From an uncultured delta proteobacterium (GTDB taxonomy: Bacteria; Desulfobacterota; Binatia; UBA9968), in contig CAVSLC010000028.1 in assembly GCA_963728565.1 (NCBI GenBank), positions 102,399-166,398 of the forward strand: a DNA stretch of 64,000 nt. Direction: 5' to 3'. Positions 4,069-28,300 of the stretch are shown piece after piece. The notes below the pieces were generated by a model. It was not told where the DNA came from and searched no databases. It saw only the letters and a program-made list of their open reading frames with translations. The position numbers were made by a program, and so were the translations under genes. The first letter of the stretch is position 1; every line of letters begins with the position of its first letter.

Positions 4069-5295
4069 ATGCGATCCCGCCATTTACTGACCGTCATTCT
4101 TGTCCTCTCGTGTACTTCAGCCTGGTGGTATTTGCTTGTGCCACAGCCCCAAATTCTTTCCTCGCGCTCGACCGTGAGTCCGCTCTCAGGTGCCCCGCGA
4201 TTTAACGCGGGAATAGTGGAAAGACGGTTAGTTCCTCCGTTAAGGGCGGAATTTACCGAAGCCATTGGAACTAATCTTATTTATATTTCCCGACTCGTGA
4301 GTGCCGACAAAGAATTAATCATTTACGCCGGTGCCGCGTTTTTTGGTTTGTTCATGATGGTTCTGGCACTTAAGAATCCGAATCCGGCCCGCCCTCGAAC
4401 AGCAGATGCAATGCTTGCCCTGCTAAAAGAGGAGAAGGAGAAGGCCGAGAATCTCGCGCGATTGAAATCAGAATTCCTGAACCAGGTTTCGCACGAATTG
4501 CGTACTCCTCTTGCCGTAATCATTGGGTACATCGAATGCCTCACTGATGGACTATACGGCCAGGTCGAGAATAGACATCATGATATTCTGCAAATCGTCG
4601 CAAAGCAGTCGGCTCATCTGAAAAATATGATAGATCAGATCCTCATCTATTCGCGCCTAGAAGCCAGCAAACAGCCGCTTCGCATCGAAGAATTTAGCCC
4701 AATGAACGTTCTACTCGATCTGCGGGATACCTTTGACTTTCTTTGCGCTCAAAAGGGTCTGCAACTGAAGTGGGAGCTTCCGCGAACGCCGCCAGCAATG
4801 AAAAATGATCCTCAAAGATTTAAGGAGATCGCTAGTAACCTGTTGCAGAATGCTGTGAAGTATACGGATCAGGGGCTGATTGTTGTGATGCTCCATGACT
4901 CCAAGATGCCGGATACCATTGTATTGGAAGTAAGCGATACGGGTGTCGGGATACCGGCGAACGCGATCAGCAGCGTATTTGACCCGTTCATCCAGGTTCA
5001 CAAAACTTCCACTGAACACTCCCGTGGAGGGATAGGATTGGGGCTCAGCATCGTCAAGAAACACATCGAACAAATGAATGGAAAGATTGCTGTCGAAAGC
5101 GAACTCGGAAAAGGATCTAAATTTAAGATTACCTTTCCTCGGAGCTACCAAAATCGCCGACAACGCAGATTTAAGTTCTTCTCTATGCTGATGCTTCCCT
5201 TCTCAAAAGCGAGCCCCACTGGTTTGTTCTTGCACAACACTTCGGCAAGCATGGGTGAACGGGCAAAAAAAGCACGCGATTTGCCGATCGTTTGA
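4069..5295 (+). CDS. Membrane-bound sensor histidine kinase
   Basis: Two TM segments, H-box SHELRTPL, N-box NLLQNAVKYT, DTGVG and GIGLGL boxes. Confidence 0.92.
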   Translation: MRSRHLLTVILVLSCTSAWWYLLVPQPQILSSRSTVSPLSGAPRFNAGIVERRLVPPLRAEFTEAIGTNLIYISRLVSADKELIIYAGAAFFGLFMMVLALKNPNPARPRTADAMLALLKEEKEKAENLARLKSEFLNQVSHELRTPLAVIIGYIECLTDGLYGQVENRHHDILQIVAKQSAHLKNMIDQILIYSRLEASKQPLRIEEFSPMNVLLDLRDTFDFLCAQKGLQLKWELPRTPPAMKNDPQRFKEIASNLLQNAVKYTDQGLIVVMLHDSKMPDTIVLEVSDTGVGIPANAISSVFDPFIQVHKTSTEHSRGGIGLGLSIVKKHIEQMNGKIAVESELGKGSKFKITFPRSYQNRRQRRFKFFSMLMLPFSKASPTGLFLHNTSASMGERAKKARDLPIV

Positions 5296-22247: not shown

Positions 22248-23444
22248 ATGCTTCAAACCAAATTCAACCGGTCTCACAATCAACTCCCTGCATCCTCGAA
22301 TACCGCCATTCGATCATTGAAAGCAGATGAAGCGTTGCTTCTTGTCGCCGCCAGTGAAGGCGACTCGAACATGCTCTATGCCGTGGGATTCTTTGTCCCT
22401 GATCCATTCATTTTTTTTCGGCACAAGAAAAAGAAGTACGTGGTGATGAGCGATCTCGAGCTTGATCGCGCAAAGCGACAGGCCACGGTGGACCAGGTGC
22501 TTTCGCTCTCCGATTATCAGCGAAAGCTGAGGAAGGCGGGCAGCCCTACGACAATGATCGGCATTCTCGAACTGCTGTTTCGCGAGCGCGGCATACGATC
22601 GCTGAGGGTGCCGGCGAACTTTTCAGCGCTTTTGGCCGACCAGTTACGAGCCAAAGGCTTCAATTTGGCGGTTATACCTGATCCCTTTTTTCCTGAGCGT
22701 GAAATCAAACGCGCCCAGGAAGTGCGGCACATAACCGAATCGCTGCGTGTGGCCAAATTGGGCCTTGATGCCGGCATCAGGATGCTCAAAAGGACCAAAT
22801 CCCGACCCGACGGGTATTTATATCTAAACGGCTCGAAGCTCACATCCGAAACACTGAAAACCGCCGTGAATACCACGATCATGGCTCAAGGATGGCTGCC
22901 CAGCCACACGATCATTTCATCCGGTAATCAGTGTGTCGATCCTCATCATGAAGGAACCGGCCCGATCAAGGCGAACACCTCGATCATCTTCGATATTTTT
23001 CCCCGCTCGCAAAAGAACGGTTATTTCGGAGATCTCAGCCGGACGGTGGTGCGTGGACGAGCATCGGACAAGCTCAAGAAAATTTACGCGACTGTGCAAG
23101 CCGGACAAAAGATCGGCTTTGACCTGATTCGCGATGGACTTAATGGCAGAGAGGTACACCAAAAGATCCTCGATCTTTTTGCCCGTGAAGGTTTTCCCAC
23201 CGGACAAATCAAAGGTCGCATGCAGGGATTCTTCCACGGCACAGGACACGGACTCGGTCTGGATATCCATGAGGCGCCTCGAATCGCGCCAGTCGATGCC
23301 ACGCTCAAGAGCGGGCATGTGGTAACGGTAGAACCCGGACTTTATTACCTCGGTATTGGCGGCGTACGACTGGAAGATGTAGTGCTGGTCACGGATCATG
23401 GCAATAAGAATCTCACCGACTGTCCTCAGTTTCTGGAAATCTAA
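22248..23444 (+). CDS. Xaa-Pro aminopeptidase, M24 family
   Basis: PHH, D..GYFGDLSRT, HGTGHGLGLDIHE, TVEPGLY, GVRLED. Confidence 0.92.
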   Translation: MLQTKFNRSHNQLPASSNTAIRSLKADEALLLVAASEGDSNMLYAVGFFVPDPFIFFRHKKKKYVVMSDLELDRAKRQATVDQVLSLSDYQRKLRKAGSPTTMIGILELLFRERGIRSLRVPANFSALLADQLRAKGFNLAVIPDPFFPEREIKRAQEVRHITESLRVAKLGLDAGIRMLKRTKSRPDGYLYLNGSKLTSETLKTAVNTTIMAQGWLPSHTIISSGNQCVDPHHEGTGPIKANTSIIFDIFPRSQKNGYFGDLSRTVVRGRASDKLKKIYATVQAGQKIGFDLIRDGLNGREVHQKILDLFAREGFPTGQIKGRMQGFFHGTGHGLGLDIHEAPRIAPVDATLKSGHVVTVEPGLYYLGIGGVRLEDVVLVTDHGNKNLTDCPQFLEI

Positions 23445-23508
23445 ATCGGTCTCTTGCGGGCCACCAGGCTTGTGCGCGAACCGCCCGATCTATAATCAGG
23501 ATTGAATA

Positions 23509-24264
23509 ATGGAAGAAGCAAAGCAGATTGCCGAATGGCTTGACGCGCTCGACCGGCCCAACAAGCAGATGCTTCGCGTCGCGGTGGACGGTTTGATCGC
23601 GGCGTTGCCGGACTCACCTGAAACGGGCAAGAATCTACAGGACCTGCTGCGCGATTCACAGCGAGGAAATCGCTGGCCTATCGCCTATATCCTCGCCCAC
23701 TTGCCTCAACCACCTGCCGAATCATTGGAGATCCTGCTCGATGCTCTTGACGATTCTGATCCAGACGTGCGCTGGGCCGTTATCTTACTCTTGGCACGCT
23801 TGACGAAGCCAGAAACGACAGTGATGCAGCTGACGACATCGCTAATGGCCACCGGCACGCCGACCCAACGCCGCATGATCATCTATTATCTAAAAGAGTT
23901 GAAGCGTCAGAACGAAGCTGTTCGGCAGACGCTGTTATCCGCGCTCGACGATTCGGATCCCACAGTTAGAGTTGCGGCAGTGATCAGCTTGAAAGAACAG
24001 GATGTGGATTCGGACGGCAAGACAACTTTATTGGACTTGCTGATGCGCGATCCTGATGTTCGGGTACAGCATGCGGCAGCGATCACCCTCGCAAGCTTAG
24101 GGTCACCGTCCGAAGAATTTTTATCGGTTCTGGATGATGCCACGAAAAATGCGCAGGGGCCGTTGAAGAAGGCTGCCGTCGCCGCGCAGCGTATCCTCCA
24201 GGAAAAAAAAGAGGTCCGTCCCATTAGGCGACTGACGTCGCCGGCGGGACGGACCCCGAGTTAA
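23509..24264 (+). CDS. HEAT-repeat protein
   Basis: Repeated L.D.DP.VR..A units (DDSDPDVRWA, DDSDPTVRVAA, RDPDVRVQHAA). Confidence 0.85.
   Translation: MEEAKQIAEWLDALDRPNKQMLRVAVDGLIAALPDSPETGKNLQDLLRDSQRGNRWPIAYILAHLPQPPAESLEILLDALDDSDPDVRWAVILLLARLTKPETTVMQLTTSLMATGTPTQRRMIIYYLKELKRQNEAVRQTLLSALDDSDPTVRVAAVISLKEQDVDSDGKTTLLDLLMRDPDVRVQHAAAITLASLGSPSEEFLSVLDDATKNAQGPLKKAAVAAQRILQEKKEVRPIRRLTSPAGRTPS
24203..24257 (-). terminator. Intrinsic terminator of the minus-strand small transcript
   Basis: GGGGUCCGUCCC/GGGACGGACCUC 12-bp stem with inner GGCGAC/GUCGCC stem, followed by U8. Confidence 0.88.
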
Positions 24265-24330
24265 CTTCGGTAGACTGAGGGGGATTGCTAGGCTTCAAGC
24301 TAGAATCCCCGTCAAAGATCCACTTGAAGC

Positions 24331-24375
24331 CTAAGTCTCAGTCACCTCGCAGACAAAACAATTATCATCAATCAT
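24331..24375 (-). CDS. 14-aa micro-ORF MIDDNCFVCEVTET
   Basis: ATG at 24375 preceded by AAAGGAGGTGGTCCAGAC; TAG at 24333-24331. Confidence 0.55.
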   Translation of the reverse strand: MIDDNCFVCEVTET

Positions 24376-24407
24376 GTCTGGACCACCTCCTTTCCCTGCT
24401 GACTTTT

Positions 24408-24436
24408 AGTTTAAGGAGCAAGGTGTCGGCTGTCAA
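24408..24436 (-). promoter_or_regulatory. Sigma70 promoter of the small RNA
   Basis: TTGACA (24436-24431) - N17 - TAAACT (24413-24408). Confidence 0.75.
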
Positions 24437-24496
24437 CAGGGAAGTGTCGCGTGCGGCCAATTTTCATACGCGGACAAATCGCGAAGCGATATAGAA

Positions 24497-25270
24497 CTAT
24501 GCCGACTGCCAGCCGATGAAACTGATCTGGCGGCCGGTTTCTTTTTTTTCTCGTCGATATGAAAAAAATTCATCTTTGGCGCAACTGGTACACGGACCGA
24601 CTCGAAAGATCTGGCTTTGAGGAATGCCGGCGCGATGCAGAATAGTTTTATTTAGATTACGTAAATGAAGGTAGTTCTTATTATCTCTGGTCTCGATTGA
24701 AGAAATCGCGAGTTCAGCCCATTGTTCGATCAACGGCTGCGCTACGTCACGACCGATTTCATAGCAACACGAGTCAATTGACGGTCCAAGGGCAACTTCC
24801 AGCTCCGAAGGCAACACGCCATAATTTTCCAGAAAGAATTTGACTGTCTTGCCGGCGATTCCTTTCAGGGTTCCGCGCCATCCGGCGTGAACGACAGCGA
24901 CGATCCTCTGTTCCCGAGCGAGGAAAAGCATAGGCACGCAATCTGCTGTTAGGACCCCAAGGAAAGTATTCTGCTCGCGCGTCGCCATCCCGTCGGCCTC
25001 GCCGGCTTCTTTGAGGTGTGCGTCTTTGACCTCGATCAGGCAATCGCCATGAACCTGCCTCATAGTGACGATACGGCCATCATGGATTCCAACAGCTAGC
25101 TTCATATCACAGACGTTCTGGCTGACGATCCCGGCATCGTCACCGACGCGGTACGAAACATTGAGCCCGGCATAAGCTCCGACGCTTTTCCCACCCTGCC
25201 GCCCTATAAAGCCGTGCAGTAAACCTGTGTCGTTTCCCCACTGCGGGACTTTCAACCAGTTGATTTTCAT
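24497..25270 (-). CDS. pgeF: YfiH/PgeF family protein
   Basis: QVHG, ADG, LTADCVP, HAGWRG, GPSI..CCYE, CTSC..FFSYRR. Confidence 0.93.
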   Translation of the reverse strand: MKINWLKVPQWGNDTGLLHGFIGRQGGKSVGAYAGLNVSYRVGDDAGIVSQNVCDMKLAVGIHDGRIVTMRQVHGDCLIEVKDAHLKEAGEADGMATREQNTFLGVLTADCVPMLFLAREQRIVAVVHAGWRGTLKGIAGKTVKFFLENYGVLPSELEVALGPSIDSCCYEIGRDVAQPLIEQWAELAISSIETRDNKNYLHLRNLNKTILHRAGIPQSQIFRVGPCTSCAKDEFFSYRREKKETGRQISFIGWQSA

Positions 25271-25395
25271 AGCCGGTATTATGTTTGGATCGTCCGCGCG
25301 ACGCAAGTCGATGGAAAAACTCCGGGCCGGTTATTCACTCTTGCATTGTGGCCCAATTTCGCCGAAATATACCCCCATAACTTCGGCAGTGCTAC

Positions 25396-28300
25396 ATGAC
25401 CAACGGACGATACATCGGCACGCTCAAACAAGCCGGCTTCTTCGCTTTCTTTTGTACCCAATTTCTCGGCGCCTTCAACGACAACTTTTATAAGATCGTC
25501 GTATCTCTGGTGGCGCTCAACGCCGCAAGCCCGCAAAGCGACAGCTTATATGTCGACCTGATCGCCTTCCTCTTTATCCTGCCTTCCGCGCTCTTCTCCG
25601 GCTATGCCGGCCATTTAGCGGATGTTTACAGCAAGCGATCGATTCTTGTCACGGTGAAGTGCTTCGAGATCGTGATCATGGGGTTGGGGTTTGCGGCCTT
25701 TTTGTCGGGCTATGTCGAGCCTATGCTGGTCATTGTTTTTCTCATGGGCCTTCATTCAGCGTTCTTCAGCCCCGCGAAATACGGCATTCTGCCCGAGATG
25801 CTGCCCGAGACTGAACTCTCGCGCGGCAATGGCTTGTTGGAGATGAGCACCTTTATGGCCATCATCTTGGGAGTTTCTCTTGGCGGGGCGATTTACTCGA
25901 TTTGGAAGGACCAGCTTCCCATGGTCGGTCTCATCATGATCGCCATCGCCGTACTCGGAACATTAGCTAGTTTGAAAATATCTCCGGTGCCTGCGTCGGG
26001 CTCGACCAGGAGTTTTAATCTCAATCCGTTCGGTGAAATCTGGCATGGCATAAAGCGGCTTTATCCCGATAGGCCGCTCCGCCTGACGGTGATTGGAATA
26101 TCGTATTTTTGGTTCTTGGGAGCTTTGGTCCAGCTCGCCATGCTGTTTTTCGGTAAAGAATTGCTAGAGCTCGATGAACTCCACATTAGTTTGCTGGGGA
26201 CTTTCCTGGCGATTGGCATCGGCATCGGCAGTTTGGCGGCCGGAAAGCTATCCGGCGATAAAATCGAGCTCGGCCTAGTGCCACTGGGTTCGATTTCGAT
26301 GGGAGTTTGTTTATTGCTTGTGTCGTATTCCGCATCATCCTATTTTTATACTTCGGCGTCTCTCGTTCTGCTGGGCTTTTCAGGCGGGCTCTTCGCGGTG
26401 CCGCTCAACGCGCTACTGCAACATAGAAGCGGGCGCGAGGAAAAAGGGCAACTGATCGCGACCAACAACTTTTTCAATACCATTGGCATTATTTTGGCTG
26501 CGACCATTCACTGGGTCTTAAATAGCGGCCTTCAACTATCGCCCGACTGGATCGTTTTTTTGATTGGAATACTCACGCTCATTGCCACGGCCATTGTCTT
26601 ACTGGTTCTGCCCGACTATTTCGTGCGCCTCGTCGCCTGGTTATTGACGCACACGCTTTACCAGAATACGGATTGCGGGCGAAGAAAACGCTCCCCTACG
26701 CAGTCCGGCGCTGTTGGTGTCAAATCATGTATCGTTTGCCGATGCCCTCCTGATCGGCGCGTGTCTGCCTGGTTTCGTTCGCTTCATGCTGCATCGCGAC
26801 TACTATGAGAACCGCTGGCTCAACTGGTTTTTCCGTTTGATGAAGTCGATTCCGATCCGGGCAACTCATCGCCGCGACGTCGTCAATTCTCTCAAGCGAG
26901 CTCGCCAGGAGCTCGAGGCCGGACACGTCGTTTGCATTTTTGCCGAAGGGGCAATCACCCGCACGGGCCACATTCTTCCATTCAAGCGCGGCTTCGAAAA
27001 AATTGTCGAGGGCACAAGCGCGCCGATTATTCCGGTTCACTTGGACCAAGTCTGGGGCAGTGTTCTTAGCTTTCATGGCGGGCGATTTTTCTGGAAATGG
27101 CCCAAGCTCTTTCCCTATCCGGTCACAGTCTCGTTTGGAAAACCGCTGCCAGCCAATTCGACCGCAATCCAAGTCCGCCAGGCGGTCCTGGAACTCGCCA
27201 GCGAAGCGGCGCGGTATCGCCGCAAGCCGGCCGATTTGTTGCCCGCCAAATTCGTTCAGATGGCTAAGCGTCGGTGGTTTTCCTTCTGTATGGCGGACAC
27301 CACCGGCACCGAACTTACTTTCGGCAAAACGTTGATCGGCAGCATGCTGCTGTCCCGTTGGATGGGCGAGCATTGCCAGGAAGACAGGATGGTAGGGGTC
27401 ATGCTCCCGGCTTCGGTTGGTGGCGCGCTGGCGAACATCGCGATCATGTTGGCGGGGAAGGTGCCCGTAAACCTTAATTTCACTGCCGGGCAAGACGCGA
27501 TGTTATCTGCCATCCAGCAATGCGGCATCAGAACAATTCTGACTTCACGACTATTTCTGACCAAAGCAAGCCTGGACGAGATGCCCGGAATGGTTTTTCT
27601 CGAAGAAGTTAGAAAGACATTCACTGCCGCGCTAAAAATAGTAACCGCCGCCAAAGCAGCGTTGTTGCCGGCGGGTTACTTGAACCGAAACGTGACGAAT
27701 AATGCGACGCCTGAAGATCTCGCTACAGTGATTTTTTCCAGTGGCAGCACCGGCGCCCCTAAGGGAGTGATGCTCTCCCATTCTAATATCCTCTCCAACA
27801 TCGAAGGTATCTGCCAGGTAATTCAATTCACGAAAAAAGACCGCATCATGGGGATATTGCCTTTATTCCACTCATTTGGTTTCACTGCGACAATTTGGCT
27901 GCCGCTCCTGGCGGGCTTTGGCGTGGTTTACCATCCAAACCCGATGGACGCCAAAACCATAGGAGAAACCGTGCAGAAGCATCAGGCTACGCTGCTGATC
28001 AGCACGCCAACTTTTTACGCGGGTTACCTGAGACGCTGTAGTCCTGAGGAATTTTCCAGCCTGCGCTATGCTATCGCCGGCGCAGAGAAGTTACGCGAAC
28101 AGATCACCCGAGGTTACAAAGAAAAATATGGAATCGATCTGCTCGAAGGCTACGGCTGCACAGAACTCGCGCCGGTGGTCTCGGTTAATATTCCGGACGT
28201 GATCGACGGCGACGAAAAACAGATCGGTCACAAGCCGGGTAGCGTCGGACATCCGATTCCCGGGGTTGCGGTTAAGGTGATCGATCCCGACACGGAGCTG

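Follow-up and report, generated by a model that had tools for sequence, protein, structure and literature searches.

A Candidate Small RNA Gene in a Binatia Genome

The subject of this analysis is an element of about 200 nucleotides (nt) in a 64,000-nt stretch of DNA, hereafter the window, from an uncultured delta proteobacterium (Desulfobacterota; Binatia; UBA9968; assembly GCA_963728565.1, contig CAVSLC010000028.1, positions 102,399–166,398 of the forward strand). All coordinates count from the first letter of the window. The element lies on the minus strand and comprises the promoter TTGACA-N17-TAAACT, a tract complementary to the 3′ tail of 16S rRNA, an open reading frame (ORF) of 14 codons, stems, and a terminator hairpin followed by U8. 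A preliminary description had listed the promoter, the ORF, the stems, and a terminator of 12 base pairs (bp) with U8, and our reading of 24000–24700 finds each of them on the minus strand where it had been placed.

The promoter consists of the -35 hexamer TTGACA (24436–24431) and, after a 17-nt spacer, the -10 hexamer TAAACT (24413–24408). It scored 10 of 12 in a promoter scan and is the sole promoter-like site in 23400–25400. Among the 38 order-level homologs with at least 55 nt of upstream sequence, all have the exact TTGACA at the same site, and all have a TANNNT hexamer at a spacing of 17–18 nt that lies 16–18 nt before GGAGG. As judged from the position of the -10 hexamer, the predicted 5′ end and the leader AGCAG occupy 24400–24396, with GCAG as the putative 5′ strand of a helix that we call P-L. 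The leader is followed by the 16S-tail complement GGAAAGGAGGTGGTCCAG (24395–24378) and the mini-ORF (24375–24331), which starts with ATG (24375–24373), contains 14 sense codons (MIDDNCFVCEVTET), and ends with TAG (24333–24331). Two helix strands lie within the mini-ORF: CUGC (24352–24349; the last base of codon 8 and the Cys codon 9), assigned by pairing counts as the 3′ strand of P-L, and GGUGACUGAG (24346–24337), assigned by folds and covariation as the 5′ strand of a long-range helix P1, which includes GAGGUG, a second sequence resembling a Shine-Dalgarno (SD) motif.

In predicted folds, a hairpin P2 (UAGGCUUCAAG / CUUGAAGCCUA; 24333–24289) begins at the stop codon; the hairpin that relatives have at this place differs in sequence. 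It is followed by AAUCCCCC and then CUCAGUCUACC, the 3′ strand of P1 (together 24286–24269), which represent a block AAUYCC..CAGnCACC common to several phyla. The intrinsic terminator (24257–24203) has a 12–13-bp stem with arms at 24257–24246 and 24222–24213, an inner hairpin, and a T8 run at 24210–24203; a consensus terminator scan missed this hairpin because its loop is large, but predicted folds do show it. A strong terminator-like hairpin with a T run is found 135–204 nt 3′ of GGAGG in 35 of the 38 order-level homologs. Together with the promoter that all 38 share, this supports the proposal that the element is a discrete small transcription unit. The 211-nt stretch folds at -90.6 kcal/mol compared with -64.5 ± 4.2 kcal/mol for shuffled sequences (z -6.25; 0 of 200 shuffles as good).

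Upstream of the element and in the same orientation is a gene with a Cu-oxidase_4 domain (PgeF/YfiH-like; 24497–25306, minus strand; Pfam E 4.5e-70), which ends 56 nt before the -35 hexamer. Gene calls and Pfam matches bear out the earlier statement that no co-oriented gene follows the terminator at this locus: the next gene, encoding HEAT repeats (23509–24264, plus strand; Pfam HEAT_2 E 2.3e-23), is convergent. A 105-codon ORF antisense to the inside of the HEAT_2 gene (23907–24224, minus strand) has no Pfam match. The 3′ end of the HEAT gene reaches about 60 nt into the terminator hairpin (24203–24264), and this hairpin may be usable by both convergent transcripts, whose 3′ ends would then be mutually antisense.

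Complementarity to the 3′ End of 16S rRNA

The 16S rRNA gene of the same genome ends ..GCGGCTGGATCACCTCCTTTCTAAGG. This confirms the 16-nt pairing with one G-U that had been proposed for AAAGGAGGTGGTCCAG (24393–24378, minus strand) and extends it by two pairs, G-C and G-U, to 18 contiguous nt with two G-U pairs, provided that the mature 16S rRNA ends ..CCUUUCU. The predicted duplex has an energy of -33.7 kcal/mol, compared with -8.7 kcal/mol for GGAGG alone. Apart from the antisense of the 16S gene itself (22 nt), none of the 6444 GGAGG sites in the 4.5-Mb assembly lies in a longer contiguous complement of the 16S tail, and the runners-up have 15, 14, and 14 nt. Five more tail complements of 13–14 nt that include GGAGGTGRTCC are present in the genome (C2 ~24997, minus; C20 ~50986, plus; C26 ~38621, minus; C4 ~76788, minus; C13 ~428159, plus), a number that by rough arithmetic is near chance for an 11-mer.

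We identified homologs in two ways. BLAST with 24195–24445 as the query gave matches with E ≤ 2.7e-7 in 55 of 60 relatives from the same order and a truncated match in one more; the other four (one genome 99% complete, three 71–90% complete) had no match better than E 0.12. In the sole near-complete genome of the same family without a BLAST match (99% complete, best E 0.28), the element may have been lost or have diverged. The order-level set used here comprises 40 loci, i.e., the window and 39 relatives, two of them from unpublished genomes, and the tract RGAAAGGAGGTGGT(C/T) is present in all 40. In addition, we scanned one genome per species across phyla with the pattern GGAGGTGRTC-N18-48-TGYGAGGTGNCTG, which yielded at least 119 stretches. 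In the related genomes, the short ORF accompanies the tract at 40 of 40 loci, and conservation extends beyond the GGAGG core.

Position by position, the sites from -5 to +11 around GGAGG are pairable with the 16S tail in 88–100% of 136 unique homologs, and 17 positions remain pairable across phyla. At sites that the search pattern does not impose, position -5 is a purine or otherwise pairable in 93%, position -4 is G in 135 of 136 and lies opposite the only C near the 16S 3′ end, positions -3 to -1 are A or G in 100% opposite U, position +10 is pairable in 88%, and position +11 is a purine in 93%, again opposite U. Position +7 is G (126) or A (10), either of which pairs with U. The purine rule ends upstream of -5, where the rRNA ends, and from +12 onward pairability falls to about 35%. 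Five genomes from three phyla (the window's own, a second Binatia family, Streptomyces, Mycobacterium, and Dehalococcoidia) have one and the same 16S tail. On the side of the start codon, conservation reaches the last two pairs of helix 45. Of the extension GRUCCAG that had been put forward, GRUC(C) plus a purine is conserved and the terminal CAG is not, since GGTCCAGAC is replaced by GGTCAAAAT in one family of the order. These alignments support the view that complementarity to the 16S 3′ end is under selection far beyond a normal SD.

Helices and the Mini-ORF

Three helices place the tract and the mini-ORF in a common structure. P-L joins the leader to the codon before GAGGUG. In the Binatia type, GCAG:CUGC pairs in 36–37 of 37 unique sequences, one base out of register relative to other phyla, where the two strands change together as ACACA:UGUG, ACACG:CGUG, or ACGCA:GCG; the leader thus tracks the codon, ACACA occurring with UGU, ACACG with CGU, and ACGCA with AGC. 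Among 113 unique non-Binatia sequences, P-L is paired in 375 of 452 cells, compared with 54–272 when the partners are slid. P0, formed by GUCC+x with N+GGAC, is paired in 525 of 565 cells compared with at most 275 when slid, and its end pair occurs in four types (G-U 48, G-C 23, A-U 13, U-A 5). For P1 (GGUGNCUG with CAGnCACC), whose 3′ strand a pattern search placed at 132 of 154 loci, the variable base is canonically paired in 114 of 123 unique sequences (G-U 62, G-C 35, A-U 15, U-A 1, U-G 1), and RNAalifold recovers this helix in the order-level alignment. Because the conserved GUCC forms P0 with the ORF, pairing with 16S rRNA is not the sole constraint on the extension. When the 5′ domain is folded in isolation, its energy is about -9 to -10 kcal/mol, compared with -33.7 kcal/mol for the 16S duplex, and the predicted mean probability of being unpaired is 0.64–0.70 for the tract core and 0.24–0.25 for the extension.

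The mini-ORF is kept as a reading frame. Across phyla, 135 of 137 unique sequences have a start codon in frame (ATG, GTG, or TTG; many homologs use UUG or GUG), and all 137 share the position of the stop codon. Among 102 unique sequences this stop is TAG (96), TAA (4), or TGA (2) and never a sense codon. The ORFs are 11, 12, 13, 14, 16, or 19 codons long, all in frame, and therefore changes in length come in threes. Control frames for this comparison are not clean, as TGTGAG makes a GTG in frame +1. At the order level, an in-frame start (39 ATG, 1 GTG) follows GGAGGTGGT by 3–6 nt at all 40 loci, the ORF ends ..TGY GAG GTG NCT GAG ACY TAG, and the encoded peptides of 11–14 residues keep M-x-D...C..CEV[TAP]ET. 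The mini-ORF is very probably translated.

Amino acid conservation does not extend beyond that of the nucleotides. With a pattern that does not constrain Cys, CGT (Arg) predominates at the codon before GAGGUG, where TGT, AGC, and CGA also occur, and the codon two before it is NGG, encoding Trp, Arg, or Gly, so that Cys, Arg, and Ser interchange at one site and Trp, Arg, and Gly at another. The third base of the Thr codon varies freely (ACA 31, ACT 30, ACG 6 among the 102 unique sequences), and it is the one base that P0 and P-L leave unpaired between them. The conserved codons all fall in strands of P0, P-L, or P1 and are thus explained by three covarying helices and not by conservation of a peptide. 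As the codons are conserved as RNA and not as amino acids, it would be ribosome binding and the act of translation that matter, not the peptide.

Relationship to Ms_IGR-5 and Distribution

At gathering thresholds, no Rfam family matches the 64-kb window, including 6S RNA, transfer-messenger RNA (tmRNA), signal recognition particle RNA, RNase P RNA, and riboswitches. The statement in the preliminary description that no known family could be matched was nevertheless wrong. When matches are ranked by E value, the element aligns end to end with Ms_IGR-5 (RF02471; model positions 1–184, 21.4 bits, E 0.0067 on 451 nt), an actinobacterial small RNA first reported in Mycobacterium smegmatis, and it is the only RF02471 match in the whole genome (E 0.016). 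On this region only RF02471 and RF01867 emerged, the rest being noise. Graded intermediates link the window element (21.4 bits) to bona fide members of RF02471: full-length alignments score 167.6 bits in Mycobacterium, 95.9 in Pseudonocardia, 86.5 in Streptomyces, 54.8 in Dehalococcoidia, 47.5 in Ignavibacteriales, 32.7 in Terriglobales (an unpublished genome), 27.3 in another Binatia family, and 24.7 in Leptospira. Five of these nine scores are above the cut-off and four below, and the conserved blocks have the same order over the full length.

The element and Ms_IGR-5 share a short leader, GGAGGUGRUCC, a start codon in a loop, YGUGAGGUGRCUG, a stop codon, one or more hairpins, AAUYCC..CAGnCACC, and a terminal GC-rich hairpin; like Ms_IGR-5, the element is probably a stand-alone transcription unit. 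Unlike Ms_IGR-5, the window RNA has a host from Binatia, a leader AGCAG instead of ACACR with the helix register shifted by one base, a bulged P1, middle hairpins unrelated in sequence, and a terminator with a U tail. We read it as a divergent relative of Ms_IGR-5 that fails the Rfam membership score. The structure given in Rfam for RF02471 pairs GGUGGU with GCUGCC and leaves CAGUCACC single-stranded, whereas covariation favors GGUGRCUG:CAGnCACC. AAUUCCCCGCAGUCACC is single-stranded in the curated structure too, and the curated and the covariation-backed pairings are mutually exclusive; they could be alternative states.

The second family that emerged, CC2171 (RF01867), is a small RNA of Caulobacter and other Alphaproteobacteria whose consensus starts with GAAAGGAGGUGAUCCAG followed by GUG, i.e., a 17-nt complement of the 16S tail beside a possible start codon. 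Unlike the window element, its consensus has no visible GAGGUGRCUG / CAGnCACC helix. The element scores 15.2 bits against a cut-off of 75 and is only the third-best RF01867 match in its own genome, behind a match on another contig (C13, 16.2 bits) and the antisense of the 16S 3′ end (16.0 bits). The likeness therefore consists of the anti-tail motif alone, and the antisense of the 16S end scores equally well; we rejected homology to CC2171 as unsupported.

Although RF02471 is recorded in Rfam as an actinobacterial small RNA, elements of this kind reach further. Among the matches listed in the cross-phylum scan, most are from Actinomycetota (Mycobacterium, Streptomyces, Kitasatospora, Pseudonocardia, and others), and the remainder include Candidatus Binatia, Terriglobales, Dehalococcoidia, Ignavibacteriales, and one Leptospira. 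Within the window's own phylum, the strict pattern, which may miss divergent forms, was found in 2 of 301 sampled genomes, namely the window's own and one member of the same family. In the class that includes Mycobacterium, a relaxed pattern was found in 63 of 101 genomes (six of them unpublished), one of these matches looking like chance.

Several known systems share features with the element. STAB-SD of Bacillus thuringiensis cryIIIA is an SD-like stabilizer at the 5′ end of a long mRNA and has no start codon, and in the entrapment of 30S subunits on rpsO mRNA, which requires protein S15, the binding site is presented by structured RNA; similarly, the strong 16S complement near the 5′ end of the element could keep a ribosome in place and so protect the RNA against 5′ decay. 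SgrS/SgrT, RNAIII/hld, and the trp and tnaC leaders combine a small RNA or leader with a translated short ORF whose translation alters downstream structure; unlike these, the element has a peptide that is not conserved, no downstream gene controlled in cis, and no known base-pairing target. In Staphylococcus aureus, a study of extended SDs describes two extra start-proximal pairs with the A and U of ..GAUCACC.., which accompany weak start codons (PMC13009471). The element likewise could pair beyond the canonical SD on the start-proximal side, and UUG and GUG starts are common among its homologs. The S. aureus cases are ordinary mRNAs, whereas the element is a structured small RNA with a tiny ORF and a complement of 17–18 nt that includes the extreme 16S 3′ end and the base of helix 45.

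Transcripts and Published Record

Sequences of the locus are present in RNA data. Eighteen runs labeled as soil metatranscriptomes hold 12–20% of the sampled sequence words of 23300–25500, and in each of four such runs that we examined there are contigs over the element, with the flanking genes also covered. A contig of run X13 matches 24257–24390 without a difference. In three of the four runs, contigs end close to the predicted 5′ end, at 24392 (X1), 24389 (X2), and 24390 (X13), and the letters that follow in X1 and X13 look like sequencing adapter; these ends fit fragment ends 8–11 nt inside the predicted transcript. Contig depth in these runs is 60.4, 20.7, and 70.1 over the element versus 7.3, 4.8, and 2.7 over the upstream gene, although depth of this kind cannot rank genes. 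A single contig of the fourth run spans the element and the upstream gene.

For homologs of Ms_IGR-5, one passage in the literature mentions "significant ribosomal reads" in M. abscessus and M. smegmatis (PMC4974804). An Ms_IGR-5 match is described as validated by RNA sequencing in Streptomyces lividans (PMC8079986), another is given as one of two small RNA transcription units with an Rfam match in a study of transcript boundaries in S. avermitilis (PMC8780764), and a cold-stress paper notes that Ms_IGR-5 overlaps ncMSMEG15794c in M. smegmatis (PMC10454040). For CC2171, a preprint describes a discrete Northern band in Methylorubrum and, in the same account, no condition known to affect it (bioRxiv 10.1101/2022.01.24.477521). 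The literature that we found on both families consists of catalog entries with mentions of expression or ribosome profiling and assigns no function, and a review leaves the Ms_IGR-5 family unmentioned. Our searches with peptide strings, nucleotide blocks, and related phrases, supplementary tables aside, returned no paper on the 16S-tail complement or the ORF of Ms_IGR-5, and likewise none on a position-specific anti-tail, on conservation of the ORF at the RNA level, on the three-helix model, or on the spread over several phyla.

Interpretation and Alternatives

We consider it likely that the element is a stand-alone RNA gene of about 200 nt, a divergent relative of Ms_IGR-5, that acts as a ribosome-docking mini-mRNA. 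The near-consensus promoter would start transcription about 5 nt before the purine tract, which can pair with the whole single-stranded 16S tail and with the two pairs that close helix 45. As long as the RNA is free, the tract core would be mostly unpaired between two short helices, P-L and P0; in the latter, the 3′ end of the tract, which is GUCC in most phyla, joins the ORF. A 30S subunit would bind the exposed core, and completion of the 17–18-bp duplex would displace the internal helix. The subunit would then initiate at the codon in the loop, and the ribosome would translate 11–19 codons, crossing the 3′ strand of P0 and unzipping P-L and the long-range P1 on its way. Termination would take place at the stop codon, the first triplet at the foot of the next hairpin, and we speculate that the terminating ribosome could be held by GAGGUG, which precedes the last sense codon by six bases. 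Such docking might serve to shield the RNA, to switch its 3′ half through translation, or to occupy ribosomes for a short time.

A broader reading, which we regard as doubtful, is that Ms_IGR-5-type RNAs, and CC2171-type RNAs perhaps by convergence, constitute a widespread ribosome-docking class that would capture 30S subunits through a toehold and strand invasion and act as a 30S trap under certain conditions or as a sensor of translational capacity, with the mini-ORF as an exit ramp. If that class existed, normal initiation and elongation would let the ribosome leave and remodel the RNA, and a stall under starvation or stress would lock the subunit on; the balance between SD-led and leaderless translation could be shifted as well.

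The features of the element can also be weighed under other explanations, of which a ribosome sponge or chaperone of the 16S tail without translation is closest to what was originally proposed. It would make the ORF incidental or a release route for trapped ribosomes, and we judge it unlikely. The complement is conserved to the very 3′ end of 16S rRNA, with an invariant G opposite C, far beyond the needs of initiation; the predicted duplex is about four times as strong as that of the core SD; the tract lies about 5 nt from the 5′ end of the RNA; the unrelated CC2171 family has a tail complement in its consensus; and the peptide sequence is not conserved, all of which would suit a sponge. A pure trap or chaperone leaves unexplained why start, frame, and stop are kept in 135–137 of 137 sequences despite changes in length, with stop variants that are always stops, and why ribosome footprints are reported on homologs in the passage cited above (PMC4974804). 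There is also a single gene copy per genome. The trap idea is retained only in a weaker form, in which ribosomes would leave the trap through the ORF. If instead the peptide of 11–19 residues were the product, with the promoter, the long SD, and the stable 3′ structure serving its yield, conservation of the start and stop, variation in the third base of the Thr codon, and the motif retained by the order-level peptides would all be expected. We find this quite unlikely: each conserved codon lies in a helix strand, and the free Thr third base is the lone base left unpaired between two helices; the radical replacements (Cys/Arg/Ser and Trp/Arg/Gly) are due to single transitions, which either preserve pairing or are compensated; neither the length nor the sequence of the N-terminal part is constant; no gene for a maturase or transporter is consistently found next to the element; and literature searches with peptide strings gave no relevant paper.

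A cis-acting element, either a leader-peptide attenuator or a processed 3′ untranslated region of the PgeF-like gene, is very improbable. The short ORF, alternative stems, and terminator do resemble an attenuator, the gene upstream has the same orientation and ends close to the -35 hexamer, and a contig of one RNA run bridges the two; nevertheless, no co-oriented gene lies downstream here, downstream genes at other loci differ or are convergent, neighbors vary between phyla and between families of the order, all 38 homologs keep a consensus promoter of their own, and the Streptomyces study lists the Ms_IGR-5 match as a small RNA transcription unit (PMC8780764). That an ordinary strong SD happens to stand beside a spurious ORF has a next to negligible probability. 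The promoter scan is within the expectation from shuffled sequence and complements of 13–15 nt occur elsewhere in the genome, but conservation throughout the order and across phyla, covariation, and the full-length family alignment contradict this explanation; the combination of promoter, tract, ORF, and terminator is real and far from chance. On reading the sequence, we saw no feature that would support a programmed frameshift at the stop, a second ORF after GAGGUG, a type I toxin, a precursor of a ribosomally synthesized and posttranslationally modified peptide or of a cofactor (PqqA- or MftA-like), or a tRNA-like or tmRNA-like RNA; no dedicated search for these was made.

Several observations weigh against a ribosome-docking mini-mRNA related to Ms_IGR-5. 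The pattern used for the cross-phylum set imposes GGAGGTGRTC and GAGGTGNCTG, so that conservation inside these is partly by construction: positions 0 to +9 are mostly imposed, and free tests come only from the flanking positions and from the 40 loci of the BLAST search. Although none of 5000 shuffles matches the observed pairing at three variable pairs, the sequences are related and such counts overstate significance. The conserved GUCC doubles as a strand of P0, and its conservation alone is no proof of pairing with 16S rRNA. In the minimum-energy fold of the window RNA, part of the tract pairs with the U-rich ORF or the U tail, and the actinobacterial form of P0 never appears in the minimum-energy folds of Binatia (0 of 37). 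Among homologs, 7 to 12 nt separate GGAGG from the start codon, and therefore the full duplex and the placement of the start codon may not coexist in every lineage. The element does not reach the RF02471 gathering score of 45, and its homology consists of a subthreshold full-length alignment and the intermediates. Shuffled sequence gives 1.5 ± 1.2 promoter sites, so the hexamers alone are not significant. Among the RNA contigs, one of run X3 (24059–24535) crosses the promoter and bridges the upstream gene and the element, and one of run X1, from a related strain (28 differences in 390), spans 24003–24392 and overshoots the terminator by 200 nt, so that it covers the 3′ end of the HEAT gene, which could be terminator read-through, convergent mRNA, or library DNA; RNA libraries may hold DNA, and contigs prove neither ends nor levels. 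The statement on ribosome profiling is one passage that points to underlying data elsewhere (PMC4974804).

If docking is what the element does, it would represent a new mode by which a small RNA engages the ribosome and a natural duplex between SD and anti-SD of the maximum possible length; if it is merely a very well-translated mini-gene, its interest is modest. What is most conserved in it is the complement of the entire 16S tail, placed at the very 5′ end of the RNA. The tiny ORF persists as a reading frame, and the conservation of its codons is that of RNA helices. These features yield a testable hypothesis for an orphan RNA of cultivable species, namely ribosome docking with a translation-driven structural switch.

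Genomic Context of the Homologs

The element is present in one copy in all five genomes checked. We found no gene neighborhood that is conserved across phyla, and neighbors also differ between families of the order. None of 50,697 phage records contains a match, and a plasmid collection contains one, in a 2.66-Mb Nocardia record with no annotated feature at the match. In a few cases the title of a record disagrees with the type of element that it carries: a contig titled as Gammaproteobacteria has a Mycobacterium-type element, and contigs titled as Syntrophobacter, Syntrophobacterales, or Deltaproteobacteria have Binatia-type elements. These mismatches probably reflect differences in labeling or binning and not a wider distribution. 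At the Terriglobales locus in an unpublished genome, the element (4478–4668) lies about 3 kb from a tmRNA gene that is upstream and on the opposite strand (1024–1385, 161.6 bits), and a tRNA gene (4832–4903, 71.2 bits) follows about 160 nt downstream.

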